DNA of 32,000 bases. Origin: an uncultured bacterium (GTDB lineage Bacteria > Auribacterota > JACPWU01). Positions 3,012-17,169 of the stretch are shown one piece after another (position 1 is the stretch's first letter; each line of letters starts with the position of its first letter). The notes under the pieces were generated by a model. That model did not search any database. It had not been told where the DNA came from and saw only the letters and a program-made list of their open reading frames with translations. The stretch covers positions 366,403-398,402 of the forward strand of contig CAZXEQ010000001.1 in NCBI GenBank assembly GCA_964640155.1, read 5' to 3'. The position numbers were made by a program, and so were the translations under genes.

Positions 3012-4901
3012 TCAGACAATTACTTCGTAAACCGTCACTGGCTTTTCTTTTCCCTTTACCTTCACCTCTCCTAACAAGCGACCTTTAATACACTCTTTCA
3101 CTCGATCATAAGTCGACTGACTGATCACAATATCCACATTAAATTGTCGGGTCAACCCTTCCAATCGAGAAGCTAAATTCACTTCATCTCCTACCACCGT
3201 ATAGTTCATCACGTGGGACGAACCCATATTACCAACAACCATTGAGCCTGTATTAATACCAATCCCCATCTGCAAGGGTTCTTTTCCCTCTTTTTCCCAA
3301 ATCCTTTTTAATTCTTTAAGTTTTTCTTGCATTTCAATCGCAGCCATTACTGCACATAAAGCATGATCTTTTTCTAAATCAACCGGGGCACCAAAAATAG
3401 CCATTAGGCCATCCCCTAAATATTTATCCAGAGTTCCTCCATGCTTTAAAATAATGCCTGTCATCACTTCAAAATATTCATTCAAGATAGAAATCACCTC
3501 TTCAGGCGTTTTACGTTCACAATAGGAAGAAAACATTCGGATATCAGAAAAAAGTACAGTTAGCTCATTTCTCTTTCCCCCTAATGCTAAAGCACGAGGA
3601 TCATCTAAGACTTTTTTCATAATGGAGGGGGACACAAAATGTTGAAAAGCCTTTTTCACAAAACGCTTTTCTTTTTCTTCAAGCAAAAAACGAGCTGTGG
3701 TTGCTAAAACATAAGACAAAATAATGCCTAGACTAGGAGCAACCATAGGAAATTGAAAATTTTTCCAAGAAAAAAGAAATCCATTCAAACAACCATATCC
3801 TATAAAAATGAAAGATGTATATAAAGCTGCCTTCCAACGCTGCGATAAATAACTCACCCAAGCTGTTAAAAGAGAAAATAGCAAAAGAATCAAGATTGAA
3901 AAAGAGATAGGGAAAATTCTCAAAAAATCTCTTTGCAAAATATTTTGAATCGCATTCAAATGAACTAGCACCAAGGGAGTATTTGGGCTTAGTGGAGTTG
4001 GATCAATATCTGTAACTCCAGTTCCTGTAAGTCCGACCACTACAATATCGCCCTGCACTTTTTTATCTCTAAGCACTTGTGCAAAAGACCCGGATTTGAA
4101 ATTTTCCAGATTTGAGCGAAAATTAATTGTAAAATTTCCTTGAGAGTCCGTTGGAATATCTAAAACTTGATTTTTTAAACGAAGTCGAATACCTGAATTT
4201 TTAATCCATTCCAAATCTGATCCAGAAAGTCCGTAATAATCCATAATTAATCTTAAGGATAAACTAGGATAAAGTTTCTTGTGAAAATGGAAAATCAGAG
4301 GGAGCTGTCTCAAAGAACCATCCATATCTTTGGGCGCATTGATAAATCCAACATGCGAAGCTTCCGAAATCTCTTTGATAGGAAGCTGTACTCCTTGCAT
4401 TTCTCTTATCTCAGAACCTTTATTTTCTAAATTCAAAATCTTATTCTTTTCGAGAACAGTTTCAGTCCAAGAAGAAAGAGAAAAAGATTGTTTCTTATTT
4501 TCAAAAAATCCCGCAAAGGTAATAGCATCAAAAGCACGACTGACCTGAGCCAAGCTCTCATCTGCTTGAGGCATGGACTCATCACTTTGAGTAAAAAGGA
4601 TATCAAAGCCCAAGGCCATAGGAGGGTTATTTTTAAATCCTTCTAACAAAGCAGCATGGTAAGTCCTTGGCCATGGCCACCGCCCTAATGTTTGAATAGA
4701 AGGATCATCGATACCAATCAAAAATATGCGCGGGTCTGCCTTTAAAAACCCCCGCAGATTAAATTTAAGATCACTAGACCTTAACTCCAATTGTTTCAGA
4801 AAAGAGGTACATGAAAGAATAAGAACAATACCAAAAGAAAGAAGACCAATAACAAGACTTTTTAGGATTTTTGTCCCTTTCGGGATTATTCTCTTTAACA
4901 T
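3012..4901 (-). CDS. CHASE2 sensor-domain class III adenylate/guanylate cyclase
   Basis: N-terminal TM segment, then the periplasmic CHASE2 hallmark LIGIDDPSIQTLGRWPWPRTYHAALL...LGFDILF. A block of hydrophobic TM segments follows. The C-terminal cyclase homology domain reads ELTVLFSDIRMFSSY...LDKYLGDGLMAIFGAP...GINTGSMVVGNMGS...YTVVGDEVNLASRLE. The track start at 4907 is a TTG; the ATG at 4901 is used. Confidence 0.85.
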   Translation of the reverse strand: MLKRIIPKGTKILKSLVIGLLSFGIVLILSCTSFLKQLELRSSDLKFNLRGFLKADPRIFLIGIDDPSIQTLGRWPWPRTYHAALLEGFKNNPPMALGFDILFTQSDESMPQADESLAQVSRAFDAITFAGFFENKKQSFSLSSWTETVLEKNKILNLENKGSEIREMQGVQLPIKEISEASHVGFINAPKDMDGSLRQLPLIFHFHKKLYPSLSLRLIMDYYGLSGSDLEWIKNSGIRLRLKNQVLDIPTDSQGNFTINFRSNLENFKSGSFAQVLRDKKVQGDIVVVGLTGTGVTDIDPTPLSPNTPLVLVHLNAIQNILQRDFLRIFPISFSILILLLFSLLTAWVSYLSQRWKAALYTSFIFIGYGCLNGFLFSWKNFQFPMVAPSLGIILSYVLATTARFLLEEKEKRFVKKAFQHFVSPSIMKKVLDDPRALALGGKRNELTVLFSDIRMFSSYCERKTPEEVISILNEYFEVMTGIILKHGGTLDKYLGDGLMAIFGAPVDLEKDHALCAVMAAIEMQEKLKELKRIWEKEGKEPLQMGIGINTGSMVVGNMGSSHVMNYTVVGDEVNLASRLEGLTRQFNVDIVISQSTYDRVKECIKGRLLGEVKVKGKEKPVTVYEVIV

Positions 4902-4942
4902 TGCCAAAGAACCTTTCAGTTCTTATACTATGAGTTTCAAAT

Positions 4943-5033: not shown

Positions 5034-6356
5034 ATGAAAAAAACTTTAGTTTTTGCATTTTTAATCACTTCCCTTTCATTCCCTGTTTTTTCAAATGTAA
5101 AAAATCAAGGTCAAATACAAGCCCTTCAAGGAGAAGTCCAGTTTTTTGAGAAGGAAGGAGCCTCTTCTCAAGCTGCAAAAGTGGGAATGACGGTGATCTC
5201 TTCGAATATTATTGAAACTGGCAATCATGCTTATTGCGTCATACAACTCGATGAACAAAATTCTTTGCGAATCAAACAAAATGCACGTGTTAAAATTGAG
5301 AAAATATGGGAAGCTTCTAAGAAGCCTGATGGATCTGTGGTCAATGAAGCTCGTTTAGATTTAATGAGAGGCGAGCTCACCGCGAAACTCAATAAAATTC
5401 CTGCTAATTCTAAATTTGAAGTTTCAAGTCCAGTCGCTATCGCAGGAGCAACCGGAACGGCCTACACCGTCTATGTAGAACCCGAAAATTCAAAAACCTC
5501 TGTCACTGTTTTAGATCATCAAGTCGAGGTCATCAACACCAATGAATCTGGGAAAAGCGTTCAAGTACAAAAATTTCAAAGAGTTGAAACAGCCCCATGG
5601 GCCCAAACAACTGTTTCAGCTTTAGGTCGAGGCGTATTATCAGAAGCCATTTTAGGGAAAGATTTTGTAAAGCAAGCCGAAAACAATATTGAAATTCAGT
5701 CTGTTGGCACGGGAACCAATCCAGAAGAAGCAAAACTTCAGGCCTTGTATCAATTATCTAAAATCATTCTCAATCTTCATGTGGATCAGGAAAAAACTCT
5801 TGAAAAGGTTATGGCTGAAGATCTGATTCTGACTCAAAAAGTTTATCAAATGATTTCAAATGCTCAGATCGTTGAATCCACCACTGCTGACGGGAAATCT
5901 CAAAGCAAAGCAAAGATTGATCTTGTATCTTTAAATCAAGCGTTAGGCAAATCCCTTTTCGGACTGACTCAAAGCGTGATTCCAATTTCTCAAAGTGAAT
6001 ACTCTAAGAAATTTAGTGCCTTAGCCCGTGTAACCACCGTTCGAGCTGCTCAAGTGGAAGGCTACCGCAATTTGGCTGAAATCATTTATGGAACAGTTAT
6101 TAACGCCGACACTACCGTAGAAGATTTTGCAGTTAAAAACGATACCGTTAGGACTAAAGTACAGGGCCTTGTTAAAGGAGCACAAGTCATTAACACTCAA
6201 TATTTTTCGGATGGCTCTGTTATTGTTTCATTGGAGATTCGAGGAGATCTCATCCCTGAAAACTTGAGTTCTGTCACAGGAGATGTTTTTGGGAAAAATT
6301 ATCTTTCTGGACCTCGATTAATTGAATATAGAGAATTTATAGATTTGGACTTTTAA
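5034..6356 (+). CDS. Secreted FecR-domain protein fused to LPP20-type domain(s)
   Basis: AAGGAG RBS 6 nt upstream. Signal peptide MKKTLVFAFLITSLSFPVFS. FecR-like beta-sandwich pattern (LQGEVQFF...VGMTVISSNIIETGNHAYCVIQLDEQNSLRIKQNARVKI...VSSPVAIAGATGTAYTV). The C-terminal LPP20-type domain reads RAAQVEGYRNLAEIIYGTVINADTTVEDFAVKNDTVRTKVQGLVKGAQV...DGSVIVSLEI. A more degenerate copy begins at SVGTGTNPEEAKLQALYQL. Confidence 0.65.
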   Translation: MKKTLVFAFLITSLSFPVFSNVKNQGQIQALQGEVQFFEKEGASSQAAKVGMTVISSNIIETGNHAYCVIQLDEQNSLRIKQNARVKIEKIWEASKKPDGSVVNEARLDLMRGELTAKLNKIPANSKFEVSSPVAIAGATGTAYTVYVEPENSKTSVTVLDHQVEVINTNESGKSVQVQKFQRVETAPWAQTTVSALGRGVLSEAILGKDFVKQAENNIEIQSVGTGTNPEEAKLQALYQLSKIILNLHVDQEKTLEKVMAEDLILTQKVYQMISNAQIVESTTADGKSQSKAKIDLVSLNQALGKSLFGLTQSVIPISQSEYSKKFSALARVTTVRAAQVEGYRNLAEIIYGTVINADTTVEDFAVKNDTVRTKVQGLVKGAQVINTQYFSDGSVIVSLEIRGDLIPENLSSVTGDVFGKNYLSGPRLIEYREFIDLDF

Positions 6357-7094
6357 ATGTTTTTATTCTTACGCCTATTGCTTGCCCATTTCGTTGGGGA
6401 TTTTCCGCTCCAATTTCGCTTTGTCTATTCCGCCAAAGTAAAAAACATTCGAGGCAAAGCCATTCACGCTGGGATCGTAACAGCAACCATGATCCCCTTT
6501 TCTTATCCCTATTGGAAAGAACCTATTCTTTGGTTTTTGTTAGCAATCATTGGAGTCACACATTTTTTCCAAGATTGGGCAAAGCTCATTATTGTCCATC
6601 GTCTTAAAAACCCAAACAATTTTTTTGTATTTCTTGCCGATCAAATTCTACATATTGCAACATTAGGGGTAATATGGCTCACTCCTTTAGCTCAACAAAC
6701 ACCGAAAGCTATTAGAAATTCTTTTCTAGAGAAACTCTATTTGGATCATACTTTTATTTTAATTTCGATTGTTCTGATATCAGCCAGCTTTGCTGGAACA
6801 TTTATGATTGCAACTTTTAAAGCTACTTTCTTATCACAGAAACTTGCCACTCCTTATCTAGAACCCCTTGAACGAATTTACGGCATTATTGAAAGAGCTT
6901 TGATGATTCTTCTAATGATTTGGTCTTATTACACAGTTATCTTGCTCCCTCTTTTTTTACTGCCCAAATTTATCTATGCTAATTTTCAAATAAAAAGGCT
7001 CAAAGGAAATTCCTTTGAGCCTTTCTTATCTGATACGATTGCTGGAATGATTTTTGTTATTATAAATTATGCATTTTATGCCCTTCTTGCATAA
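6357..7094 (+). CDS. Polytopic membrane protein, DUF3307-like
   Basis: N-terminal LLLAHFVGDFPLQ motif (H-x3-DF-x-Q) and about 6 hydrophobic segments. The ATG directly abuts the TAA of the upstream gene (TAAATG), which suggests translational coupling. Confidence 0.5.
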   Translation: MFLFLRLLLAHFVGDFPLQFRFVYSAKVKNIRGKAIHAGIVTATMIPFSYPYWKEPILWFLLAIIGVTHFFQDWAKLIIVHRLKNPNNFFVFLADQILHIATLGVIWLTPLAQQTPKAIRNSFLEKLYLDHTFILISIVLISASFAGTFMIATFKATFLSQKLATPYLEPLERIYGIIERALMILLMIWSYYTVILLPLFLLPKFIYANFQIKRLKGNSFEPFLSDTIAGMIFVIINYAFYALLA

Positions 7095-7126
7095 TTCATA
7101 CTGCTTGCTATCTAATCAATACGCCA

Positions 7127-8071
7127 TTAGAAATGATACGTAAGCCCTAACGCTGCACTCCAAGATTTCCAATTCACCTCATCAAGAATCGCATGCCCAG
7201 ATGTCCCGTCTGCAAAAAAAGTTCTATCCTCTCCTGTATCTGTCGACCAATCTTGATAAGTAAGATCTAAATTAATAGACCAGTGAGAGGAGAAAGCGTA
7301 ATCTGCTCCTCCTGATAATTTTAGACCATCCCCATCCGCATCATGAGAATAGCTCTTGGGATGTTGGAAATCTTCACGTTGAGCCCAATTCCCCACAGCA
7401 CTATAATTAACAAAGTGATATTCAAAACCAAAAAGAAATGTCAGCTTTTTTGTAGCATCATAAGATAGATCCATTCCTAGCCAAGCCCCATGCCACTGAG
7501 TTTCATAAGAACTGTTCACATCTCCCGTCGCAGAACCTACGGGAGTATCATCGATTTGATTTAATGTTATAACCCCATCATGAATTTCCAAATTCTGTTC
7601 TTGATATGAGTATCCAACAAGAGGAGTAAAGCTCAATCGATTCGAACAAAAATCGAATTGCACTCCTATCCCAGATGATGTATCCAAAACATTTCCACCC
7701 TCTGCAGAATGGTGAGTCCTTGAGAATTCGTCCTGGCGGGGATGTTTTACATCTCCAACAAAATCTGAGTCCTGTACTTGTCCATCCAAAATCCAACCAT
7801 AGGCAAATTTACCTTTAAGAACAAAAGTATCATTCACAATAATCTTGCCATTGGTACTGAGTTGGTCTATATCCAAATCCTTCCAAGTCAGGTCAGAAGC
7901 AATTCCCAGCAAACCCCCAACATCATCGGGTTGTACTCCATGAAGAGAAAATTTTAAGTCATCCGAGCGATACCCATTCGCCACATTCAATTCTGTTTCA
8001 ATTTTTCCAAACGCAAGTGTATTTGCAAAAATAACAGCAAACAAAGAAACCCATTTGAACCATTTTTTCAT
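7127..8071 (-). CDS. Omptin-like outer-membrane beta-barrel protein
   Basis: Signal peptide MKKWFKWVSLFAVIFANTLAFG. Alternating amphipathic strands and a terminal LGLTYHF (C-terminal Phe). By-eye collinearity with E. coli OmpT: SDLTWKD ~ SQLDWKF, QVQDSDFVGD ~ MVDQDWMD, YETQWHGAWLGMDLSY ~ YKQRFKMPYIGLTGSY, and LGLTYHF ~ AGLKYTF. Confidence 0.5.
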   Translation of the reverse strand: MKKWFKWVSLFAVIFANTLAFGKIETELNVANGYRSDDLKFSLHGVQPDDVGGLLGIASDLTWKDLDIDQLSTNGKIIVNDTFVLKGKFAYGWILDGQVQDSDFVGDVKHPRQDEFSRTHHSAEGGNVLDTSSGIGVQFDFCSNRLSFTPLVGYSYQEQNLEIHDGVITLNQIDDTPVGSATGDVNSSYETQWHGAWLGMDLSYDATKKLTFLFGFEYHFVNYSAVGNWAQREDFQHPKSYSHDADGDGLKLSGGADYAFSSHWSINLDLTYQDWSTDTGEDRTFFADGTSGHAILDEVNWKSWSAALGLTYHF

Positions 8072-8156
8072 ATTTTCATTCTCTTTTACAAGTTAGTTAA
8101 TTTATTACTATTTACAGGCATTTGCAGCACTTTAGTGTAAAACAACTCTATGGTAC

Positions 8157-8211
8157 AAGGAGGCCAGAAGTATAAGAAAATTATGTACGTATAGCCTAAT
8201 ATGGCCTCCTT
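8157..8211. repeat. Perfect 10-bp inverted repeat with a 35-nt spacer
   Basis: AAGGAGGCCA (8157-8166) pairs with TGGCCTCCTT (8202-8211). Each arm reads as a Shine-Dalgarno-like AAGGAGG on one strand, but no start codon follows on either strand. Confidence 0.4.
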
Positions 8212-8256
8212 AGAATTTAATGTTTAGGATTCCCCCGTTGTATAATGTCCAAAGTC

Positions 8257-8305
8257 TGTAAAAAAAGAGCCAAGAATGTTCAGCTTAAAAACATCCTTGG
8301 CTCTT
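8257..8305 (-). terminator. Rho-independent terminator ending the CsgG-like operon
   Basis: On the minus strand, AAGAGCCAAG-(21-nt loop)-CTTGGCTCTT forms a 10-bp perfect stem. A TTTTTTT run follows immediately. It lies about 40 nt after the stop at 8344. Confidence 0.7.
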
Positions 8306-8343
8306 AAATAATCTAACAATCAATCCTTCATTCCCTGAATTCC

Positions 8344-9327
8344 TTAGGGCTCATTCTCAAACTTCAGAATATCTCCTCTCTGAAATCCAGCACCACCCAC
8401 AGCACTTGCAATGGAGAATTTGTCTTGCACTTGAAGAATTTGAATACGACCAACTTTGGTCAATTCAGATCCTAAACTCATACCAGACTCAGGATCTACC
8501 AATTCCTCACCTGCTTTGTAAACATTCATCATATCTCCATTAGAAATACCTGCATTGGCTCCAGCATTGACAAAAACCTTTCCATCTGGTTTCACATCAA
8601 CAATACGACCAGACCATGGAATATTTTGCATTCGGCTAACAATAAAAAACACTGCTTTGCTAATAGCCATTTGACATGCTTTGCCCAAAGGTGTTCTATC
8701 AAAACCACCTCCACCAAAAGCAAAATCTCTATCTGTATAAGAGAAAGATAAACCTCCCTCTTCAGCAATACCTTCACAACGTTGAGAATCAAGAACCTGC
8801 CCTGTGGTTGTATCATAAATACGAATATTCACAGCCACCTTGGCTCTTGCAGAATTTCCTCCTATCGTAAAACCCTTCACAGAAAAACCTCCGCCTTCAC
8901 CACCACCAGAAGCTTCAAACTCTGTGACAGCTCCACTGATCATAATCTGAGCTTTCAAGATTTTACCGATTTTAGCAGCTTCTCCACCCGCAGTACGGCC
9001 ACTTACACCAAAATCTTGCTCAGTAATCACTTTTTCAATCTCAGGTCTTTCAACCACAATAAATCGACCACTGGCAATCAATGAGGTAGTTAACATTTCA
9101 GCCATACCGTTTCCTAAATCCCATTTAGCAAATTGCCCAGCTTTGTTCTCAAAGCTACCTACAGCAATGGTTTTTTTAGGTCCCATGGGAGCTGGCAATG
9201 CAACTACAGGAGCTGCATGAACAGGACGACCACGAGCGGGACGTCGATCATAGCTAAAGCCTAAAGACTGAATTAAAAAAACAATGAGAAACCCTCCTAA
9301 AATACTTCTTATCATTCTGACACACAT
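8344..9327 (-). CDS. CsgG-family outer-membrane channel protein with a C-terminal beta-domain extension
   Basis: Collinear with E. coli CsgG as I recall it. TIAVGSFENKAGQF ~ IFVSVYNIQDETGQF. MAEMLTTSLIASGRFIVVERPEIEKVITEQ ~ ATAMLVTALKDSRWFIPLERQGLQNLLNER. The Gly-rich hairpin region AQIMISGAVTEFEASGGGEGGGFSVKG...AKVAVNIRIYDTTTGQVLDS ~ ANIMVEGSIIGYESNVKSGGVGARYFG...IAVNLRVVNVSTGEILSS. About 90 extra C-terminal residues (GRIVDVKPDGKVFVNAGANAGISNGDMMNVY...RGDILKF) follow. AGGAGG RBS 10 nt upstream. Confidence 0.8.
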   Translation of the reverse strand: MCVRMIRSILGGFLIVFLIQSLGFSYDRRPARGRPVHAAPVVALPAPMGPKKTIAVGSFENKAGQFAKWDLGNGMAEMLTTSLIASGRFIVVERPEIEKVITEQDFGVSGRTAGGEAAKIGKILKAQIMISGAVTEFEASGGGEGGGFSVKGFTIGGNSARAKVAVNIRIYDTTTGQVLDSQRCEGIAEEGGLSFSYTDRDFAFGGGGFDRTPLGKACQMAISKAVFFIVSRMQNIPWSGRIVDVKPDGKVFVNAGANAGISNGDMMNVYKAGEELVDPESGMSLGSELTKVGRIQILQVQDKFSIASAVGGAGFQRGDILKFENEP

Positions 9328-9355
9328 GTTAAATACACCTCCTGTTTTTTAAATC

Positions 9356-9394
9356 GTTAATCCGTTTGCCTGTTAACCTGTTTTTCCAGTTAAC
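9356..9394. promoter_or_regulatory. Three GTTAA(C/T) hexamers spaced 16-17 bp apart in the gap before the CsgG-like gene
   Basis: GTTAAT at 9356-9361, GTTAAC at 9372-9377 and GTTAAC at 9389-9394. The function is unknown. Confidence 0.2.
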
Positions 9395-9448
9395 GCTAAG
9401 AACTCTTAGTCTGCTCAACTAACAAACTGGAGAACTAGCTAACTGAGA

Positions 9449-10624
9449 CTATTCTGGTTGAAGCGGTGTTAAATTTTCCCCCGCTGGTTCAGCACCAGCC
9501 GTCCCTATAACTTTCACATCAATTCTGTTCTGTGTTTTCCCTGTAACAGATAAAGAAAGACTTGGCAAACTTTCCAATCTTTCATCGAAATCTTTCCAAA
9601 TGGCGCCATCAACATTCACATCCAAGATAACTACCCCATTGACAAAACTTCTTTCGCTAACACTTTCCACTCCGCGAATGGATTCTAAATCCTTAACAAG
9701 CATGCGGCGTGTTGTAGCATTCGCTCCTTCTGCAATAATTTGTATATTCACCGTATTAAAAGCTTCGCTTCTCATACGATCCACCACTTGAACCATCATT
9801 CTTTCAGCAAGCTGAGCCGCACCCTGACGAAGAGAATCCTTAGCTGTAGGAATACGTCCTCCGCCACGTGCTTCTGAATCAGCTTGATCTGAAACCATGA
9901 CTTCGGCTGTATCTGTTTTAATGGCTTTAGCGGAAATCTGTGAACGATAGGCAAACACAGAAACACCATAAGGTCTAGAATTATCAACCAAATCTGATGT
10001 CGCCTGTCCTACGATCACGATCTCAGCTCCGTATTGACGGCCTAAAGCAGCAGCTTTTTGAGGATCTGCATAACTCAAAGAAGCATCTCTTTCTTTAATC
10101 ATTTGCATTTGAGCTTTATCTACCAAAGGAAACTCTTTCGCCAAAAAAGCTCTTTCCATCTCTGTCTGAGTAACAGCACCTGCTTGTTCCAAACCATCAA
10201 TCAATTCAGAGAAAATAAACATGGTTCTTGGATTCCCACGACGTTTCATCGTAAGTTTAAGCGCCTTGAGATTCTTCTCTAAAAGACCCAATGCAACGGT
10301 CGCTCGTACACGAACAATATAGATTCCACCTTCACCGTGATTATCTCCAATCACTTCATAATTTGTCACATATCCTTTTACATGAGAATAAACTTGATCA
10401 TCCAAAAGTTGAAAATTACTGACCATTGTTTCTGAATCAATAACAGAACCCACTCCTTGTTCGATTGCAGCACGCAAAGCTCGATTCAAAGCCTCATCAT
10501 GAGCTTTAAGATCAGAACCTGCAGCTTTACCTTCAAGCTCAATAATTTTTTCGGATGCTTGTCCCATCACGATGGAACTAACCATCCACACGCTCAAAAA
10601 AAACATGCTTAGTAATCTTTTCAT
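9449..10624 (-). CDS. Secreted FlgT-like three-domain protein (LPP20/FlgT_N-like, then TolB-N/CsgG-like alpha/beta domain, then a C-terminal domain)
   Basis: Signal peptide MKRLLSMFFLSVWMVSSIVMGQA. The N-terminal domain reads AHDEALNRALRAAIEQGVGSVIDSETMVSNFQ...VKGYVTNYEVIGD...GIYIVRVRATV. The middle domain has the PRTMFIFSE...EFPLVDKAQ...ALGRQYGAEIVIVGQATSD pattern, as in CsgG/TolB-N folds. The track start at 10663 lies inside a GC hairpin, so the ATG at 10624 is used. Confidence 0.45.
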   Translation of the reverse strand: MKRLLSMFFLSVWMVSSIVMGQASEKIIELEGKAAGSDLKAHDEALNRALRAAIEQGVGSVIDSETMVSNFQLLDDQVYSHVKGYVTNYEVIGDNHGEGGIYIVRVRATVALGLLEKNLKALKLTMKRRGNPRTMFIFSELIDGLEQAGAVTQTEMERAFLAKEFPLVDKAQMQMIKERDASLSYADPQKAAALGRQYGAEIVIVGQATSDLVDNSRPYGVSVFAYRSQISAKAIKTDTAEVMVSDQADSEARGGGRIPTAKDSLRQGAAQLAERMMVQVVDRMRSEAFNTVNIQIIAEGANATTRRMLVKDLESIRGVESVSERSFVNGVVILDVNVDGAIWKDFDERLESLPSLSLSVTGKTQNRIDVKVIGTAGAEPAGENLTPLQPE

Positions 10625-10662
10625 TTTTAATCTTTCCCTTTCTACCCCAGATTCAAGAACCA

Positions 10663-10688
10663 CTCGCCCCGACGTAAGTCGGGGCGAG
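10663..10688 (-). terminator. Intercistronic GC-rich hairpin (attenuator, processing or stability element)
   Basis: CTCGCCCCGAC-GTAA-GTCGGGGCGAG forms a perfect 11-bp stem with a 4-nt loop. The downstream tract on the minus strand is only weakly U-rich (UGGUUCUUG). Confidence 0.4.
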
Positions 10689-10703
10689 ATGATTCACGCT
10701 TAA

Positions 10704-10841
10704 TTATTCAACCACTTCTTGTTGCTCAACAACTCTTTCGCTTACAACTTCACGATCCGTATGACAAGCACATCCTGTTAAAGTAACCAAAAGAATTCCT
10801 ACATAAGCTACACTCACCCATTTCAAAAGCTTCATAATCAT
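10704..10841 (-). CDS. Small lipoprotein (45 aa), not in the ORF track
   Basis: My translation is MIMKLLKWVSVAYVGILLVTLTGCACHTDREVVSERVVEQQEVVE*. Lipobox L-T-G-C. An AAGGAG RBS lies 4 nt before the first ATG and 10 nt before the third-codon ATG at 10835, which may be the true start. Confidence 0.55.
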   Translation of the reverse strand: MIMKLLKWVSVAYVGILLVTLTGCACHTDREVVSERVVEQQEVVE

Positions 10842-10876
10842 TTAACTCCTTCGTTGAGGGTTTTTGTTTTAATACA

Positions 10877-10918
10877 GTGCTGTGTATGAATCACCCTTAG
10901 GGACTTCACACACAGCAC
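10877..10918 (-). terminator. Intercistronic hairpin after the triple-LPP20 gene
   Basis: GTGCTGTGTATGAA pairs with TTCACACACAGCAC at 13 of 14 positions around a 14-nt loop. No U-tract follows on the minus strand, so this is an attenuator or stability element rather than a full terminator. Confidence 0.35.
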
Positions 10919-10934
10919 ATTTCAAGCAACTTCT

Positions 10935-12275
10935 TTATGAATGATACTGACGAATCTTCTCCCAAAGGCTCGTTAAAGAAATTTGAGCCTCTACTTCAGC
11001 GCTACCATCTTCGAGAAATCGTGGCTCGCTGACCTGAGCACCCGCCAAGAATGTCTGAACTTCAGCTTTAATATTGTCATTCTCAACCGCAAAATCTTGA
11101 ACGGTTGTATCAGAATCAATTTTAACGCCATAGACCATTTCAGCCAAATTTCTCTTGGCATCAATTTCAGCAGCACGAGCAGCAGCTAATTTTCCTTCTG
11201 TTCCACTGCCTTCAGGTGCAATACCTGTTCCTTTTGCACTTACAACCTGACTTGCCCATTCAGGAGATTCTTCAATCGTCTGAGGAGCCATAGCCATAGG
11301 TTCAGGAGCAGGACCATTCTTATATTTCTCAGGAGGAACACCTTCTCCTGTAACGCGAATGTATTTTTTAGGATAGAACTTTACAACTTCCTCAAATCGT
11401 GTCGTTTTTAAATGATCATGTGACCAACGATGATAAGGATCATGATGATGATACCAATCACGAATCGTCGTTAATTCCTTAATAACGGTTTGAATGGCCA
11501 CTTCAACGTCGACTTGGCATATCCCATCTGGCATATAACGATAAGCTCCAACTGTTTTCATGCCTTTGATAAAGGTATCCACTCGTGTTGAAATCTGATC
11601 TGATTCAGCCACAAAATCACGAACATAGGTATCAGCTGTAATCTGAAGACCTTTAATACGTTCAGCCATATTACGATAAGCATCTACCTTTGCAGCTCTT
11701 TCAGCCATCATACGACCCCGGGCAGAAACATTCTCCCATCCAGGTATTCCTGTCGTAGGAGCAGCTAAAGTAGGCTCCACTGGAATTGCGGCAGGTGCTT
11801 CTTGCATTACTTCTGGTGTTTCCCGAGGAGCACCACGACCTGTTTCACGAATCACTTTTAAACGATTGATTGTGACCATCTTATCAAATGAATAAACATG
11901 ACCATGACACAAATGATGGTATGTTTTATAAAAACGTTGAAGTTGTTGAACCAACTCTTGAAGTGTGATTTCAACCGTAACTTCAGCAGATCCATCCTCA
12001 AAATAGCGAGGAGCACCTACTACTCTTGCGCCTTTAAGGAAAGTATCCAAAGAAGTACGAATTTCATCTGCTTCTGCCACAAAATCACGAACATAGGTAT
12101 TGGCATCAATCTTCAAACCTTTGATTCTTTCCGCCAAATTCCGATATCCATCCACAATTGCTGCTCTTTTTGCTAACAACTTCTGCTGCCCTGGCTGTAA
12201 AGCCCAAGACGTAGAACTGATGCTGGCCATAAAAACAGCGGCCAATGCTAGAAAACTTATGACCCTTCTCTTCAT
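10935..12275 (-). CDS. Secreted protein with three tandem LPP20-type domains joined by His/Tyr-rich linkers
   Basis: AGGAG RBS and signal peptide MKRRVISFLALAAVFMASISSTSWA. The three repeats are LAKRAAIVDGYRNLAERIKGLKIDANTYVRDFVAEADEI..., MAERAAKVDAYRNMAERIKGLQITADTYVRDFVAESDQI... and AAARAAEIDAKRNLAEMVYGVKIDSDTTVQDFAVENDNI... The linkers are YKTYHHLCHGHVY and DWYHHHDPYHRWSHDH. Confidence 0.7.
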   Translation of the reverse strand: MKRRVISFLALAAVFMASISSTSWALQPGQQKLLAKRAAIVDGYRNLAERIKGLKIDANTYVRDFVAEADEIRTSLDTFLKGARVVGAPRYFEDGSAEVTVEITLQELVQQLQRFYKTYHHLCHGHVYSFDKMVTINRLKVIRETGRGAPRETPEVMQEAPAAIPVEPTLAAPTTGIPGWENVSARGRMMAERAAKVDAYRNMAERIKGLQITADTYVRDFVAESDQISTRVDTFIKGMKTVGAYRYMPDGICQVDVEVAIQTVIKELTTIRDWYHHHDPYHRWSHDHLKTTRFEEVVKFYPKKYIRVTGEGVPPEKYKNGPAPEPMAMAPQTIEESPEWASQVVSAKGTGIAPEGSGTEGKLAAARAAEIDAKRNLAEMVYGVKIDSDTTVQDFAVENDNIKAEVQTFLAGAQVSEPRFLEDGSAEVEAQISLTSLWEKIRQYHS

Positions 12276-12358
12276 TTTGTTTCTCCTTTTTCTTTGTATT
12301 ACAGTCTAACTCATTCCCTAAAGGGCTATGAGAATCTTTCACTCATTATCTTATAAAA

Positions 12359-12883
12359 CTACTTATTCCACTCCACCCACGCTTCTTCAGAAATGGTTTC
12401 CACTTTTCGATCTACCGTGTATATATGGACACCAAAATCTTTCACTCTCTTGATAATCCATACTTCATTCTTAGATTCAGGAAAACGAATATCTAATGCA
12501 AGCTTCACCTGTACACGTCCATCAGGAAGATAGTTCTTTTCAACAACACGAGCCCCACGAATAAATCCTGTTGTCGAAACCATTCCTGTTCCATGATCAA
12601 GAATCGGGTTTAATCGATCCACTGCAGATATCAGGTTACGATAAGCTCTTAACTTTGCAGCACGTTCTGCTAATAATTTTCCTTGAGCTTTCCCTCTTCC
12701 ATGAGGAGCTCGCCCCACACCTACAACTTCAAGAACACCTGTGGAAGAATTTTTTTCGATAGATTCATTTGTTGTCAATGCCACGGTAACAGAAGAATCA
12801 GTTGCTGCCTTAAGTGAGGGGATTCCTCCCCCTAACATAGTCAACAGAAGTATGTTAGATATTATAACTTTTAATATTCTCAT
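12359..12883 (-). CDS. Secreted single-LPP20-domain protein
   Basis: Signal peptide MRILKVIISNILLLTMLGGGIPSLKA. The LPP20 pattern is VVGVGRAPHGRGKAQGKLLAERAAKLRAYRNLISAV...GFIRGARVVEKNYLPDGRVQVKLALD. Confidence 0.6.
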   Translation of the reverse strand: MRILKVIISNILLLTMLGGGIPSLKAATDSSVTVALTTNESIEKNSSTGVLEVVGVGRAPHGRGKAQGKLLAERAAKLRAYRNLISAVDRLNPILDHGTGMVSTTGFIRGARVVEKNYLPDGRVQVKLALDIRFPESKNEVWIIKRVKDFGVHIYTVDRKVETISEEAWVEWNK

Positions 12884-12925
12884 ATCGCAATACCTTTCTA
12901 AAAGCGGAACTCAAGAACAATCGAC

Positions 12926-12947
12926 CCTCTGCATTTTATTGCAGAGG
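12926..12947 (-). terminator. Hairpin immediately after the small Tyr/Arg-rich gene (candidate partial terminator or attenuator)
   Basis: CCTCTGCA-TTTTAT-TGCAGAGG forms an 8-bp stem. On the minus strand a moderately U-rich tract follows (GUCGAUUGUUCUUG). It starts 24 nt after the stop codon. Confidence 0.4.
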
Positions 12948-12970
12948 CTCGAAGTTCAGTTTTTGTATTA

Positions 12971-13255
12971 CTAGCAATCCCTATAATAACCATGTCTATA
13001 GCCATGATGACGATATTCACGATATCCATAATAAGGTCTGTAGACCACTGGACGATACACGACAGGGCGATAAACAGGTTCTTCATAATAATAGCTTCCT
13101 CTGTGGCATGAAGAATCTGCCAAAACTGCACCTGTTACAACTCCTGCAAACGCTCCAGCTGCAAACCACGCTGCATCATCACTGGCTTTTGACTGCTCTG
13201 GTGCTGCAAAAGAAAACAATCCTAATACTACCAAAATAACGATTAACTTTTTCAT
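12971..13255 (-). CDS. Small exported glycine-zipper protein with a Tyr/Arg/His-rich repeat tail
   Basis: AAGGAG RBS and signal peptide MKKLIVILVVLGLFSFAAPEQSKA. GxxxGxxxG zipper (GAFAGVVTG). The 48-residue tail holds 13 Tyr, 8 Arg, 4 His, the repeat PVYR-PVVYR-PVVYR, and Cys at both ends. Confidence 0.7.
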   Translation of the reverse strand: MKKLIVILVVLGLFSFAAPEQSKASDDAAWFAAGAFAGVVTGAVLADSSCHRGSYYYEEPVYRPVVYRPVVYRPYYGYREYRHHGYRHGYYRDC

Positions 13256-13289
13256 TTTAAATCTCCTTTTTTCATCTGGCTATATATTG

Positions 13290-13305
13290 AGCAAGATCAA
13301 TGCCA
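13290..13305 (-). promoter_or_regulatory. Sigma-54 (-24/-12) promoter
   Basis: The minus strand reads TTGGCATTGATCTTGCTC, that is TGGCAT-N5-TTGCT against the consensus TGGCAC-N5-TTGCW with exact GG/GC spacing. It lies about 35 nt upstream of the ATG at 13255. A sigma-54 activator gene is divergent from it. Confidence 0.75.
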
Positions 13306-13368
13306 ATCCAATTAACACATTCCAATAGAACGAGTTATGATATTTTATCTATTTAAGACCTAAAAATA

Positions 13369-13399
13369 TTGTTTCAAAATGGAGCAAATTTTATATAAT
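13369..13399 (+). promoter_or_regulatory. Candidate sigma-70 promoter for the activator gene
   Basis: TTGTTT (13369-13374), then 17 nt, then TATATAAT (13392-13399). Confidence 0.3.
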
Positions 13400-13401
13400 A
13401 A

Positions 13402-13485
13402 CGTTGTGCGTACTGCGGGATGAGTCATGTGCAAAATAAAAAAACCAAATCTTTAAGCTTTCACGCATAGCGCAGCACGCAACAC
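13402..13485. promoter_or_regulatory. TGCGT/ACGCA motif array (candidate enhancer/UAS and/or leader structure)
   Basis: CGTTGTGCGTA (13402-13412), ACGCATAGC (13463-13471) and ACGCAACAC (13477-13485). The two ACGCA units have a 14-nt period. The array lies 97-180 bp upstream of the -24 box and within the presumed leader of the activator gene. The same arrangement occurs upstream of glmS. Confidence 0.4.
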
Positions 13486-13501
13486 GAACGACGAGGGAAA
13501 A

Positions 13502-15049
13502 ATGGCATTCGAAAGTAAACATTTACAGCAGGTTCTTCATCAATTAGGTGATGAGGCTCTGGGAGAACTGATCAAAGTCAGTACTCTCATTAATTCGTCC
13601 TTGGATTTATCCGAAATTCTTGCCTTTGTCATGGATTTGACCAATCGACTTCTCAATTGTGAAGCCAGTTCCCTTTTACTTTTAGATGAAAAAACAAATG
13701 AGCTTGTATTTCGATCTGCCACAGGACAAAAAGCCAAAGATTTAAAACAAATCAGTCTCAAAATGGGACAAGGCATTGCAGGTTGGGTCGCTGAAAAAGA
13801 AAAGCCTTTGATCGTTTCAGATGCTGAAAATGATCCACGCCATTTTCAAGGAACAGATGGGAAAATTGGATTTAAAACAAAATCTATTCTTTGTGTCCCT
13901 ATGAAAGCTAAAGGCAAGTTAATCGGTGTAGCGGAAGCGATTAATAAAAAAGGTAATATGGAATTTGATAATGATGATTTATCTCTTCTTTCTATTCTTG
14001 CTGATCAAGCAGCCATTGCCATTCAAAACGCTAGAACTTTTGAAGAACTTCAACAAAACCACCAAAATCTAAAACAAGAAATTGAATCCAAATATAACTT
14101 AGTAGGAAAATCTGATCAGATCCAGGAAATCCTTAAAATAGCGAAGAAAGTAGCAGCTGGAGATTCAACCCTTCTAATCCGGGGGAAAAGCGGAACAGGT
14201 AAGGAGATGTTGTCACGAACAGTGCACAATTTAAGTCCTCGTTCCAATAAACCCTTTGTTGCAGTGACTTGTTCTATTCTGACACCCACCCTTCTTGAAA
14301 GCGAACTTTTTGGACATGAGAAAGGGGCTTTTACAGGCGCTGATGCTAGAAAAATTGGCCGTTTTGAAATGGCAAATGGAGGAACACTTTTTTTAGATGA
14401 AATTGGAACTTTAGCTCCTGAAACACAATTAAGACTCTTACGTGTTTTGCAGGAAAAAGAGTTTGAACGTGTCGGAGGCACAGAAACAATTAAAGTTAAC
14501 GTGCGCATCATTGCCGCAACCAATGCTGACCTTGAAAAAGCGATTGCCAGTGGAGAATTTAGAGAAGATTTATATTATCGACTCAAAGTCATTGAAGTTT
14601 TTATGCCCGATCTCAAAGACAGACCCGATGATATTGAAACTTTGAGCAAACATTTTCTTGAGATTTATTCACGTGAAATGAGTCGAACTGTGAAGGGATT
14701 TTCAAAAGAAGCCATGGAAATTCTAAAAAATTATGCCTGGCCTGGAAATGTTCGTGAACTAAAAAATACCATTGAAAGAGCTGTGGTCTTGGGTGGCAGC
14801 GAACAGATTATTCCTGAAGACCTTCCCATGGAAATACGCATGGGTAAAATTTCCTCTTCTTCATCTCAAAGCACCGTAACAACTCCCTCTTCTTCCCTGC
14901 CTGAAGGATTTTCACTAGAGGCTGCAGAAGCTAGACACATTCAGGAAGTGCTACAGAAAACCAATTGGAATAAAAGCAAGGCCGCAGAACTTTTGGGGAT
15001 TTCAAGAAATCGTCTGGATAGAAAGATTGAAGGATACAAATTACAATAA
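13502..15049 (+). CDS. Sigma-54-dependent transcriptional activator (GAF - AAA+ - Fis-type HTH)
   Basis: N-terminal GAF-like domain. Walker A GKSGTGKE, sigma-54 contact loop EKGAFTGA and Walker B TLFLDEIG. C-terminal HTH KSKAAELLGISRNRLDRKI. There is no receiver domain. Confidence 0.9.
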   Translation: MAFESKHLQQVLHQLGDEALGELIKVSTLINSSLDLSEILAFVMDLTNRLLNCEASSLLLLDEKTNELVFRSATGQKAKDLKQISLKMGQGIAGWVAEKEKPLIVSDAENDPRHFQGTDGKIGFKTKSILCVPMKAKGKLIGVAEAINKKGNMEFDNDDLSLLSILADQAAIAIQNARTFEELQQNHQNLKQEIESKYNLVGKSDQIQEILKIAKKVAAGDSTLLIRGKSGTGKEMLSRTVHNLSPRSNKPFVAVTCSILTPTLLESELFGHEKGAFTGADARKIGRFEMANGGTLFLDEIGTLAPETQLRLLRVLQEKEFERVGGTETIKVNVRIIAATNADLEKAIASGEFREDLYYRLKVIEVFMPDLKDRPDDIETLSKHFLEIYSREMSRTVKGFSKEAMEILKNYAWPGNVRELKNTIERAVVLGGSEQIIPEDLPMEIRMGKISSSSSQSTVTTPSSSLPEGFSLEAAEARHIQEVLQKTNWNKSKAAELLGISRNRLDRKIEGYKLQ

Positions 15050-15226: not shown

Positions 15227-17068
15227 TCACTCCACCGTCACACTCTTTGCCAAATTTCTCGGCTTATCAATATCACATCCTCTATAAAGAGCAATGTAAT
15301 AAGCCAAAAGCTGTAGAGGAATCACATTAAGCAAAGGAGAAAGCTCTTCAACCGTTTCAGGAACTTCAATGACATGACGCGTGAGTTGTTTAACAATTCT
15401 GTCGCCAGGATTGGCAATCGCAATGATTTTACCACCACGCGCTTCAATCTCTTTTACATTGGAAATCATTTTTTCGTATGTATTGCCTTGTGTACAAATA
15501 CACACAACAGGAAACTGTTTATCAATCAAGGCAATAGGCCCATGCTTCATTTCTCCTGCTGCATAGGCTTCTGCATGACTATAGGAAATTTCTTTATTCT
15601 TAAGTGCTCCTTCCAAAGCTGTGGGATAATTAAATCCTCGCCCCAGATAAAAAGAGCTTTTGGCCTGATGATATTTTTTAGCAGCAATTTTGATCGCGTC
15701 TTGATGATCTAAAATCCATTGAATTTTTTCTGGGATTTTCATCAACTCTGAAAGAAGCCCCCTTGCAGCCTGATTCGTCATTTGTCGACGTGCACGCCCC
15801 AAGAAAACACTTAAAAGATAGAGGGCTGCGAGTTGAGTCAAATAAGCTTTGGTAGATGCCACACTGATTTCAGGCCCTGCTTGCGTATAAATGACATGGT
15901 CACTTTCACGTGTCAAAGTGCTCCCCACCACATTCACAATGGATATCACCCGACAACCTAATTCACGGGCTTTACGAACACTAGCGAGTGTGTCTGCTGT
16001 TTCCCCCGATTGACTCACAGCCAGAACTGCAGTTCCAGGACTGAGTTGAATGGCTCGATATCTAAATTCACTTCCTAATTCTACTTCTACTGGAATGCTG
16101 GTATAGCGCTCCAAAATATATTTACCACACAGTCCCGCATAATAAGCCGTTCCACAACCAATAATCATCAATCGTTCAATGGATCTAGATTCAGCCAAAT
16201 CCAGGATTTTTTCTTCGAAAGAGACAGCCCCTTTTTCAAGATTAATCCTGCCCATCCAAACATTTTTTAAAATATTTGGTTGCTCATAAATTTCTTTGAG
16301 CATGAACTTTTCAAAACCACCTTTTTCAGCCTCTTCAACTTTCAATGTGACATGATCTACTTTAAAAGGTACACTTCGACCTAAAAGATCTTTCACCTGA
16401 CAATGATCTTTATGAATCACAGCCATTTGACTATCTTTAAGATAGATGATTTTTCTGGTTTTAGAAATAAGAGCAGATACATCACTGGCAATAAAATTTT
16501 CATCTTGCCCTAGTCCCACCACCAAGGGGCTTCCAAAACGTACTGCAATTAAAATATCTGGTTCTTTCTTATCAATAACGCCAAGTGCGTAAGTTCCTCT
16601 TAATTTCTTCAAAGTCTGACGAACAGCTTCCTCTAATCCCAAAGCTTCTTTGTTCAACTTTTCTTCAATCAAATGAGCAATCACTTCTGTATCGGTGACA
16701 GAACGAAATCGATGCGATTTTTTAAGAAGTTCTTCTCTTAATTCCTGGAAATTTTCAATAATGCCATTATGAACAACCGCAATCGATTTATGACAATCCA
16801 TATGGGGATGTGCATTGAGATCAGAAGGTTGGCCGTGAGTGGCCCATCGGGTATGACCCAAACCTAAATGAGATTTAATATGAAGCGGCGTAGTAACTTT
16901 AATGAGCTCTTCTAATTTGCCAAGTTTTTTAAAAATCTTGAGATTCCCGTTTCCATTCAGAACACTTATCCCTGATGAATCATAGCCGCGATATTCCAAG
17001 CGAGCTAGTCCATCTATCAAAACAGGAACTGCATTATTTTTACCAATATATCCAATGATTCCACACAT
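15227..17068 (-). CDS. glmS: Glutamine--fructose-6-phosphate aminotransferase (isomerizing)
   Basis: N-terminal MCGIIGYIG (Ntn nucleophile Cys2) and HTRWATHG. Two SIS domains. The C-terminal ...DKPRNLAKSVTVE ending is typical of GlmS. 613 aa. Confidence 0.95.
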   Translation of the reverse strand: MCGIIGYIGKNNAVPVLIDGLARLEYRGYDSSGISVLNGNGNLKIFKKLGKLEELIKVTTPLHIKSHLGLGHTRWATHGQPSDLNAHPHMDCHKSIAVVHNGIIENFQELREELLKKSHRFRSVTDTEVIAHLIEEKLNKEALGLEEAVRQTLKKLRGTYALGVIDKKEPDILIAVRFGSPLVVGLGQDENFIASDVSALISKTRKIIYLKDSQMAVIHKDHCQVKDLLGRSVPFKVDHVTLKVEEAEKGGFEKFMLKEIYEQPNILKNVWMGRINLEKGAVSFEEKILDLAESRSIERLMIIGCGTAYYAGLCGKYILERYTSIPVEVELGSEFRYRAIQLSPGTAVLAVSQSGETADTLASVRKARELGCRVISIVNVVGSTLTRESDHVIYTQAGPEISVASTKAYLTQLAALYLLSVFLGRARRQMTNQAARGLLSELMKIPEKIQWILDHQDAIKIAAKKYHQAKSSFYLGRGFNYPTALEGALKNKEISYSHAEAYAAGEMKHGPIALIDKQFPVVCICTQGNTYEKMISNVKEIEARGGKIIAIANPGDRIVKQLTRHVIEVPETVEELSPLLNVIPLQLLAYYIALYRGCDIDKPRNLAKSVTVE

Positions 17069-17084
17069 AGAAAATCCGTCACAT

Positions 17085-17142
17085 GTAATGCGTCATGGGT
17101 AATGCGTAAAAACAATAAAATATTTTTCTTTTACGCACAACG
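17085..17142 (-). promoter_or_regulatory. TGCGT/ACGCA motif array in the glmS leader
   Basis: The minus strand reads CGTTGTGCGTAAAA-(17 nt)-TTTTACGCATTAC-CCATG-ACGCATTAC, followed by 17 nt and then the ATG. The first two blocks can form a ~13-bp hairpin. The 11-mer CGTTGTGCGTA is identical to that at 13402-13412. Confidence 0.4.
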
Positions 17143-17169
17143 CGCGACGCATGCCGCATCACATCCTTT

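Follow-up and report, generated by a model that had tools for sequence, protein, structure and literature searches.

The 32-kb stretch of DNA analysed here (the window: 32,000 nucleotides (nt) of contig CAZXEQ010000001.1, assembly GCA_964640155.1, from an uncultured bacterium placed in Auribacterota) carries an operon for exported proteins that resemble parts of the outer rings of flagellar motors, and it raises the question of what such proteins might build in surroundings where neither flagellar nor curli families are found. The operon consists of six co-directional genes, running from 13255 to 8344 on the minus strand between a match to the σ54 promoter consensus and a terminator with a 17-bp stem, and we are highly confident that it is real, conserved and linked to σ54. 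Judged from the sequences, structure models and analogy to known rings, its products may assemble, independently of flagella, into a ring or pore beneath the outer membrane whose parts are of FlgT and FlgP type, a reading whose probability seems to us evenly balanced. The module is better described by these parts, in the manner of the H-ring of Vibrio or the basal disk of Campylobacter, than as a curli-like secretion system. The first-pass annotation of the window had suggested an outer-membrane-anchored ring or secretion apparatus; of this the conserved σ54-controlled envelope module is retained, and the curli-like secretion framing gives way to the FlgT/FlgP-type one. The region studied is 32 kb of one genome. 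Gene coordinates (Table 1) agree with the list of open reading frames (ORFs), and domains were assigned by Pfam and NCBIfam scans covering the ORFs of at least 120 amino acids (aa) together with the 94-aa lead gene, below called the scanned ORFs.

Across the 32 kb, no sequence other than TGGCATTGATCTTGCT upstream of the operon fits TGGCAC-N5-TTGCW with one mismatch or none. Matches with two mismatches occur in the window at chance level, and it is therefore the position of the element that counts, with the first ATG some 35 nt downstream and the divergent activator gene opposite; in 12 related loci an equivalent -24/-12 element stands before the operon's first gene. The activator matches Sigma54_activat (E 3e-69), GAF_2 (E 6e-21) and HTH_8 (E 1e-13) in Pfam and contains the GAFTGA motif, and its divergent position is kept in nine related loci on the BLASTP map (L005, L009, L010, L011, L014, L017, L021, L023 and L025; L numbers are our handles for related loci). 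At the other end of the operon the stem of the terminator and its T run are located 39 nt past the stop codon. The six genes behind a near-consensus σ54 promoter and before a clean terminator, and the regulator of their own, are thus as the first-pass annotation had described them. An NKFDE-like motif (NK-x5-F-x3-D) is visible in the GAF domain of the activator, but as a motif it is too common among GAF domains to speak for binding of a cyclic nucleoside monophosphate. A search of 13256–13520 for inverted repeats gave no convincing activator binding sites. Inside the operon, the GC-rich hairpin after the mini-lipoprotein gene has a predicted RNA folding energy of -33 kcal/mol (z = -4.3); intercistronic hairpins of this kind might control mRNA stability or stoichiometry, with different levels of the upstream and downstream products. 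A second strong intercistronic hairpin without a T run follows the LPP3 gene (about 10878–10919, minus strand), and the first one is not kept in L005, whose gap at this place spans only 17 nt.

Related loci were collected by inspection of neighbourhoods and by a scan of one genome per GTDB species (8-sequence alignment; 25 loci), and were compared in an all-locus BLASTP map. Of the 29 related loci examined, about 20 keep the core order LPP1, LPP3, mini-lipoprotein, FlgT-like and CsgG-family gene; they include GTDB species representatives and metagenome contigs and are labelled Auribacterota, Omnitrophota, Chlamydiota or carry no label; the gene combination first seen in the window thus co-occurs in related genomes. 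The full pattern comprises the divergent activator, with or without the Tyr-rich gene, then LPP1, LPP3, one to three mini-lipoproteins, the FlgT-like gene and one or two CsgG-family genes. LPP1 homologues are found at the equivalent position in 18 loci, LPP3 is syntenic in about 22, and FlgT-like homologues from metagenome-assembled genomes with the labels Chlamydiota, Auribacterota/Aureabacteria, Omnitrophota and others are 45–60% identical. Often added are a convergent pair of DUF3307 and FecR/LPP20 genes and a CHASE2 cyclase gene: the FecR/LPP20 gene adjoins the module in 11 loci, the pair is kept in L005, L007–L010, L012, L016, L019 and L025, and the cyclase stands beside the pair in L005, L008, L009, L010, L012 and L025. 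The labels of close relatives conflict, since L008 (95% identity) is labelled Candidatus Auribacterota, and L009, P0010 and P0011 (72–78%) bear the label Chlamydiae or Chlamydiota; the window falls within these groups. In L005 (17248–19384) the CHASE2 cyclase is followed downstream by a partner-switching module made up of a GAF-SpoIIE (PP2C) phosphatase, an RsbW-like kinase and a STAS protein; it would add a second output with a GAF domain beside the same cyclase. At the equivalent position L012 and L025 show only a GAF-type match.

At least five LPP20 domains had been noted by the first-pass annotation, and the present count agrees with this, with one domain in LPP1, three in LPP3 and two in the FecR-domain protein. 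LPP1 was missed by Pfam, and is recognized by BLASTP against the three LPP3 repeats with E-values from 5e-9 to 3e-6; its β-hairpin falls about 10 aa short of that in LPP3, and a C-terminal ISExEW motif (I-S/D-E-x-E-W) is kept across phyla (window, L005, L006, L010, L015, L016, L021 and L022). The two domains of the FecR protein match the LPP3 repeats with E 2e-16 and 3e-5. The domains of LPP3 align without gaps, hairpin segment included, to chain 9hmf_C (E 3.4e-7), a Campylobacter jejuni lipoprotein that we take to be FlgP, and to the FlgP of Vibrio (8z5n_2, E 1.3e-5). LPP3 is without a lipobox, and the LPP20 proteins here, LPP3 included, have type I signal peptides. Between the LPP3 domains the linkers have many His and aromatic residues (YKTYHHLCHGH; DWYHHHDPYHRWSHDH), and by their composition might bind metal.

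The 391-aa protein contains an N-terminal SHS2/LPP20-like domain, a middle domain like CsgG/TolB_N and a C-terminal α/β domain. Its AlphaFold2 model (pLDDT, the predicted local distance difference test score, 80) has FlgT as best Foldseek match, with E 3.7e-12 to 8z5n and E 9.6e-11 to 3w1e over about 392 columns at 14% identity, and the middle domain also matches GNA1162, PelC, CsgG and LptE by fold. The earlier naming of the protein as FlgT-like is therefore sound at the level of fold. Orthology to Vibrio FlgT is rejected, since phmmer of the protein against the PDB gave no match at E <= 1. The profile of the family gives only a weak N-domain match in the PDB, again to 9hmf_C (E 0.013). Pfam FlgT_N matches 8 of 19 family members, and the models for FlgT_N, for FlgT_M and for FlgT_C stay below threshold on the proteins of the window itself. 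Among the profile searches proposed for the window, CsgG, LPP20, FecR and DUF3307 were thus found, the FlgT models match many family members and not the window proteins, and FlgO and omptin gave no match. The NCBIfam model LipL46 (NF033164) matches the window protein with E 2.7e-5 (23 bits) and its relatives with E 1e-9 to 1e-22 (36–80 bits); the equivalog cut-off of 400 bits is reached by none of them, which indicates from sequence comparison that the protein belongs to the LipL46 superfamily and is not an orthologue. The FlgT-like family as a whole comprises 847 clusters (50% identity, E <= 1e-30).

The last gene of the operon encodes a CsgG-family domain (PF03783, 125.8 bits against a cut-off of 20.8) followed by a C-terminal β-roll of FlgT_C/TsaP type. 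All 30 family members match the CsgG model, FlgT_C matches 26 of the 30 and FlgT_M 18. In a profile search against the PDB the N-terminal part is assigned to CsgG (4.7e-16) and the β-roll to TsaP (1.9e-10). The structure model (pLDDT 77, predicted TM-score 0.71) gives FlgT as best Foldseek match (E 1.8e-16, TM-score 0.59, middle and C-terminal domains), with CsgG at E 1e-9. In CsgG two transmembrane β-hairpins per subunit build a 36-strand barrel. The corresponding segments here are 24 and 21 aa long against 24 and 25 in the E. coli protein, equal for the first and 4 aa short for the second. In both, a conserved pattern alternates between aromatic and hydrophobic residues and the hairpin loop is a conserved Gly/aromatic one; the monomer model shows the segments as low-confidence loops. 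In the region of the constriction loop (Tyr51/Asn55/Phe56 in E. coli CsgG) the alignment has a 7-residue deletion. There is no Cys at the end of the signal peptide (LIQSLGFS/YD), so that a lipobox is lacking, and few homologues have one. The first-pass description as a CsgG-like channel consequently stands for the domain and not for the lipobox and the constriction loop, the best fold match being FlgT; a function as outer-membrane channel or pore is no more than possible.

The gene at the head of the operon encodes a signal peptide together with a glycine-zipper segment and a tail rich in Tyr, Arg and Pro that has a Cys on either side. It is present in the window and 9 related loci, with the same architecture and the same position at the head of the operon (these include L005, L009, L010, L011, L014, L017, L025 and L031), and was not found in L006, L007, L013, L016, L018, L021, L022 and L030, in the 414 nt upstream of the L035 operon or in the Omnitrophota-labelled loci examined. 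Since many carriers thus appear to lack it, the protein would be accessory and not the defining substrate, a lineage-specific and possible cargo judging by its sequence. The proposal that it is a candidate cargo leading the operon keeps its positional part in the 9 related loci and loses the idea of a module-wide substrate, the core being kept without the gene. The mini-lipoprotein, the sole lipidated product of the operon, has a signal peptide and, after LTGC, about 21 mature residues ending EVVE. One to three such genes (lipobox and VVE-type end) lie between the LPP3 and FlgT-like genes in at least 14 related loci, for example in L005 (9859–9984), in L006 (9433–9558 and 9835–10014) and in L013 and L015 with three copies each, and the family has 20–40 residues after the lipobox. 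The Tyr-rich proteins of L005 type have the end EPVVIVEE..WW, similar to the VVE ends seen in the mini-lipoproteins, and these ends, like the ISExEW motif of LPP1, may be docking peptides held in common.

In Vibrio the FlgT ring is 26-fold, the rings made by lipidated FlgP and FlgO beneath the outer membrane are 58-fold, and FlgP's C-terminal loop inserts into clefts of the FlgT ring (bioRxiv 10.64898/2025.12.02.691832). In Campylobacter the innermost ring of the disk consists of 17 FlgP trimers joined via a β-hairpin sheet, the hairpin being linked to ring formation, and FlgQ resembles a two-FlgP repeat (Drobnic et al., PMC12222027). The tandem repeats of LPP3 recall both FlgQ and these trimers. 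Like the H-ring and the basal disk, the module has the FlgT-type multi-domain fold, here twice, FlgP-type LPP20/SHS2 domains with the ring-forming hairpin, exported parts throughout, putative lipoprotein attachment under the outer membrane, and the σ54 control that is common for such genes. Unlike them, it has FecR/LPP20, DUF3307 and CHASE2-cyclase genes as neighbours, its FlgP-type proteins are not lipidated, one of its FlgT-type proteins is clearly CsgG-family by sequence, identity to FlgT is about 15%, and no FlgO, MotX or MotY was found by the Pfam scan of the window ORFs of at least 120 aa. Flagellar and curli families are likewise missing from the scanned ORFs, as the first-pass annotation had supposed, and in about 30 loci no flagellar gene adjoins the module, save for a weak Flagellin_N match about 4 kb off in L035. 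None of the Ace Lake Auribacterota genomes is reported to encode flagella, while Candidatus Auribacter fodinae is (Williams et al., PMC9324843). Two of these Ace Lake genomes carry the module, L010 (Candidatus Theseobacter exili, 88% complete) and L016 (Candidatus Tritonobacter lacicola, 92% complete), so that in these relatives the genes do not appear to be flgO, flgP and flgT orthologues of a flagellar regulon.

With curli CsgG and with HfaB the module shares the CsgG domain, both barrel hairpin segments at similar length and an operon led by a small low-complexity exported protein; it differs from them by the missing lipobox, the shorter constriction loop and the additional FlgT_C/TsaP β-roll, and its candidate cargo was not found in many carriers. 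No csgA, csgB, csgE, csgF, hfaA or hfaD accompanies it among the scanned ORFs, nor do curlin, CsgE or CsgF appear in the related neighbourhoods. TsaP is the ring protein that encircles the secretin of the type IV pilus, with β-roll domains forming spokes around the channel (bioRxiv 10.1101/2020.05.29.123786). The C-terminal β-roll of the CsgG-family protein is like that of TsaP, unlike which it has no LysM domain, and the module contains no secretin or pilus genes. To LipL46 the 391-aa family shows full-length homology, from which the window protein differs in having no lipobox and in scoring far below the equivalog cut-off; LipL46 is an outer-membrane lipoprotein of Leptospira, studied as antigen and adhesin. 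The middle-domain fold is shared with PelC, GNA1162 and LptE. These, in contrast, are lipoproteins of a single domain, of which PelC makes a dodecameric ring beneath an outer-membrane exporter; the module lacks a partner resembling PelB or LptD.

By analogy to the Vibrio H-ring and the Campylobacter basal disk, the FlgP-type domains would polymerise into rings or arcs, with the three-domain LPP3 as a covalent trimer, and the two FlgT-type proteins would form inner rings. The CsgG-family protein would oligomerise, and its two amphipathic hairpins may enter the outer membrane as pore or anchor. The mini-lipoproteins with their VVE end and conserved C-terminal peptides such as ISExEW of LPP1 might dock the parts to the membrane and to one another, a role suggested by comparison with the C-terminal loop of Vibrio FlgP in the clefts of the FlgT ring. 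A signal from the envelope would be sensed via the CHASE2 cyclase and the FecR/LPP20-DUF3307 pair and be passed to the GAF domain of the activator, possibly as a cyclic nucleotide. The assembly would serve the outer membrane as scaffold or reinforce it, or else would be a ringed pore for export, through which the Tyr/Arg-rich protein could leave in lineages that have its gene. The wider claim, that this is a free-standing outer-membrane ring organelle around a CsgG-family pore, sibling or ancestor of the H-ring and basal disk and widespread in Auribacterota, Omnitrophota and related lineages, we put forward as tentative and rather doubtful.

Several observations weigh against the FlgT/FlgP-type ring or pore. 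Ring formation is deduced from homology and fold, and the putative link from cyclase to GAF domain from the conserved neighbourhood. Identity to FlgT is about 14–16% with an empty phmmer search, the FlgP-type proteins are unlipidated unlike flagellar FlgP, and a FlgO homologue is missing from the Pfam-scanned ORFs of at least 120 aa. The hairpin loops of the CsgG-family protein are of low confidence in the monomer model and their insertion into the membrane is putative, and the reported flagella-free status is that of relatives' genomes, the bacterium's own genome being represented by 32 kb. Parts can also work outside the module, as solitary genes indicate: a 373-aa FlgT-like gene of 42–44% identity is present in the Verrucomicrobia loci L024, L026, L027 and L029, standing alone among housekeeping genes, with a weak FlgT_N match and no module genes nearby, in L026 (9932–11053) and L029 (9962–11083), and a CsgG+FlgT_C gene stands alone in L033 (a Bacteroidota-labelled genome) and L034 (a contig).

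Were the system instead a curli- or holdfast-like secretion machine, the CsgG-family protein would be an outer-membrane channel exporting the unfolded Tyr/Arg/Pro-rich lead product as an adhesive or matrix component, and the LPP20 and FlgT-like proteins would be periplasmic accessories in the manner of CsgE and CsgF or HfaA and HfaD. The strong CsgG matches by sequence in both Pfam and the PDB speak for this, as do the two hairpin segments with their conserved pattern and the low-complexity exported lead protein whose position is kept in 9 related loci. We nevertheless judge it rather unlikely: the core is kept without a detectable Tyr-rich gene in most Omnitrophota-labelled loci, in L006, L013 and L018 and upstream of the L035 operon, the loop that holds Y51/N55/F56 is 7 residues shorter, there is no lipobox, FlgT and not CsgG is the best fold match, and the CsgA, CsgB, CsgE and CsgF families are missing from the scanned ORFs. 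It is also conceivable that the proteins are factors of envelope maintenance that form no higher-order ring, regulating peptidoglycan synthases or tethering the outer membrane to peptidoglycan like LpoB, TolB_N or LptE proteins, and induced through σ54 upon envelope stress. Weak Pfam matches to LpoB and TolB_N, the fold matches of the middle domains to GNA1162, PelC, LptE and also HpaA, and the adjoining CHASE2 and FecR-type envelope sensors agree with such a role, and genes of amino-sugar metabolism flank the activator, with GlmS and NagA in L005, L010 and L014 and GlmS in L011 and L017. The LpoB match is, however, below threshold on the window proteins and at best E 3.3e-9 at family level against E 1.3e-46 for CsgG, neither the presence of four to six domains of FlgP type bearing the ring-forming hairpin nor the TsaP/FlgT_C β-roll is explained, and GlmS is convergent with the activator, not co-transcribed, and the flank is absent in other carrier lineages, so that this explanation appears improbable.

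That the genes are divergent H-ring or basal-disk accessories of an organism whose flagella are encoded elsewhere in the genome would fit with FlgT and FlgP as the closest solved structures or sequences, with the flagella of Candidatus Auribacter fodinae (PMC9324843) and with the weak Flagellin_N match near the module of L035. A further point in its favour is the σ54 promoter, as this sigma factor controls flagellar genes in many bacteria. The two Ace Lake genomes with the module and reportedly without flagellar genes, the absence of adjacent flagellar genes in about 30 loci apart from this L035 match, the FlgO, MotX and MotY missing from the scanned ORFs and the low identity to FlgT, far under the level of orthologues, make it very improbable. 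Least of all do we believe that these are exported proteins that are merely co-transcribed and have no joint function. Here one can point to the FlgT-like and CsgG+FlgT_C components that occur as single genes in other lineages, but the five-gene order, tiny lipoprotein genes included, is kept across phyla at 45–60% identity, which is hard to explain other than by functional coupling.

Table 1. Position of the operon, its signals and the adjoining genes in the window
Feature	Position	Strand	Evidence
CHASE2 sensor fused to adenylate/guanylate cyclase	3012–4907	-	Pfam CHASE2 E 2e-50, Guanylate_cyc E 3e-28
Exported FecR-domain protein with two LPP20-type domains	5034–6356	+	Pfam FecR E 1.8e-10, LPP20 E 1e-5
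DUF3307 multi-pass membrane protein	6357–7094	+	Pfam DUF3307 E 3.5e-15
Pom-family β-barrel	7127–8071	-	Pfam PF17251 E 2e-63
Intrinsic terminator of the operon	8265–8305	-	17-bp stem and T run
CsgG-family protein, 327 aa, with sub-threshold FlgT_C tail	8344–9327	-	Pfam PF03783 E 1.9e-36
FlgT-like / LipL46-superfamily protein, 391 aa including signal peptide	9449–10624	-	no Pfam match
GC-rich intercistronic hairpin	10663–10688	-	11-bp stem with 9 GC pairs, without T run
Mini-lipoprotein, 43–45 aa, lipobox LTGC	10704–10841	-	translation
LPP3, three tandem LPP20/FlgP-type domains	10935–12275	-	Pfam LPP20 E 8.9e-19, three stretches
LPP1, one-domain LPP20-type periplasmic protein, 174 aa	12359–12883	-	BLASTP against LPP3 repeats
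Lead gene, 94-aa exported Tyr/Arg/Pro-rich protein	12971–13255	-	sequence
σ54 -24/-12 promoter, TGGCAT-N5-TTGCT	13290–13305	-	consensus match
GAF / σ54 AAA+ / HTH_8 activator	13502–15049	+	Pfam

The nine consecutive genes between 5034 and 13255 had been described as encoding proteins with signal peptides, a lipobox or transmembrane segments, and reading of the sequences by eye confirms for all nine either a signal-peptide-like start or a multi-pass membrane protein. The start codon of the DUF3307 gene directly follows the stop codon of the FecR gene, and the two are convergent with the operon. The β-barrel gene between the DUF3307 gene and the operon terminator had been taken for an omptin and thereby for a possible surface protease; this was rejected, as the protein belongs to Pom and shows no omptin match in Pfam at E <= 0.1. 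Pom is an outer membrane protein of Protochlamydia. The gene accompanies the module only in the window and in L008, which is 95% identical, and is probably an unrelated porin-type gene outside the conserved module. Beyond the activator follow GlmS, NagA (15227–18285, minus strand) and other housekeeping genes, and the opposite flank encodes a PfkB kinase, a HAD phosphatase and a DUF3108 protein. GlmS adjoins the activator in L005, L010, L011, L014 and L017, followed by NagA in L005, L010 and L014, and with its convergent orientation this may be synteny of the lineage rather than a functional link. Further along on the minus strand there is an 823-aa protein with HEAT and ankyrin repeats (26526–28997), eukaryote-like and hinting at a host-associated lifestyle, and a 675-aa ORF with no Pfam match (29966–31993). 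No RNA genes were detected in the window by Rfam and tRNA scans.

Full-text searches of the literature for the gene combination, for DUF3307, for TsaP/FlgT/CsgG, for CsgG in Omnitrophota and for LipL46 together with these families turned up no paper that describes the module. Its parts belong to known families, and it is their assembly, the non-flagellar setting and the regulation that appear to be undescribed; what is said here of function is computational inference, and the carriers found are all uncultivated. The large family of 847 clusters, unannotated and distantly related to the Leptospira antigen LipL46, gains a genetic context from the module, and a regulatory path is suggested that leads from the CHASE2 cyclase and FecR-type sensors to the GAF activator and on to σ54. 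The outer rings and disks of flagella, FlgT and FlgP among their proteins, are thought to have been recruited from envelope proteins that existed before, and we know of no autonomous system built from FlgT/FlgP-type parts. The module is a concrete candidate for such a system and thus bears on the origin of the accessory rings of flagella. If the wider claim of a free-standing ring organelle is true, rings of FlgT and FlgP type existed, or persist, as an autonomous machine around a CsgG-family pore, and flagellar motors later recruited such parts; the module could then be a secretion or adhesion apparatus of a new kind.

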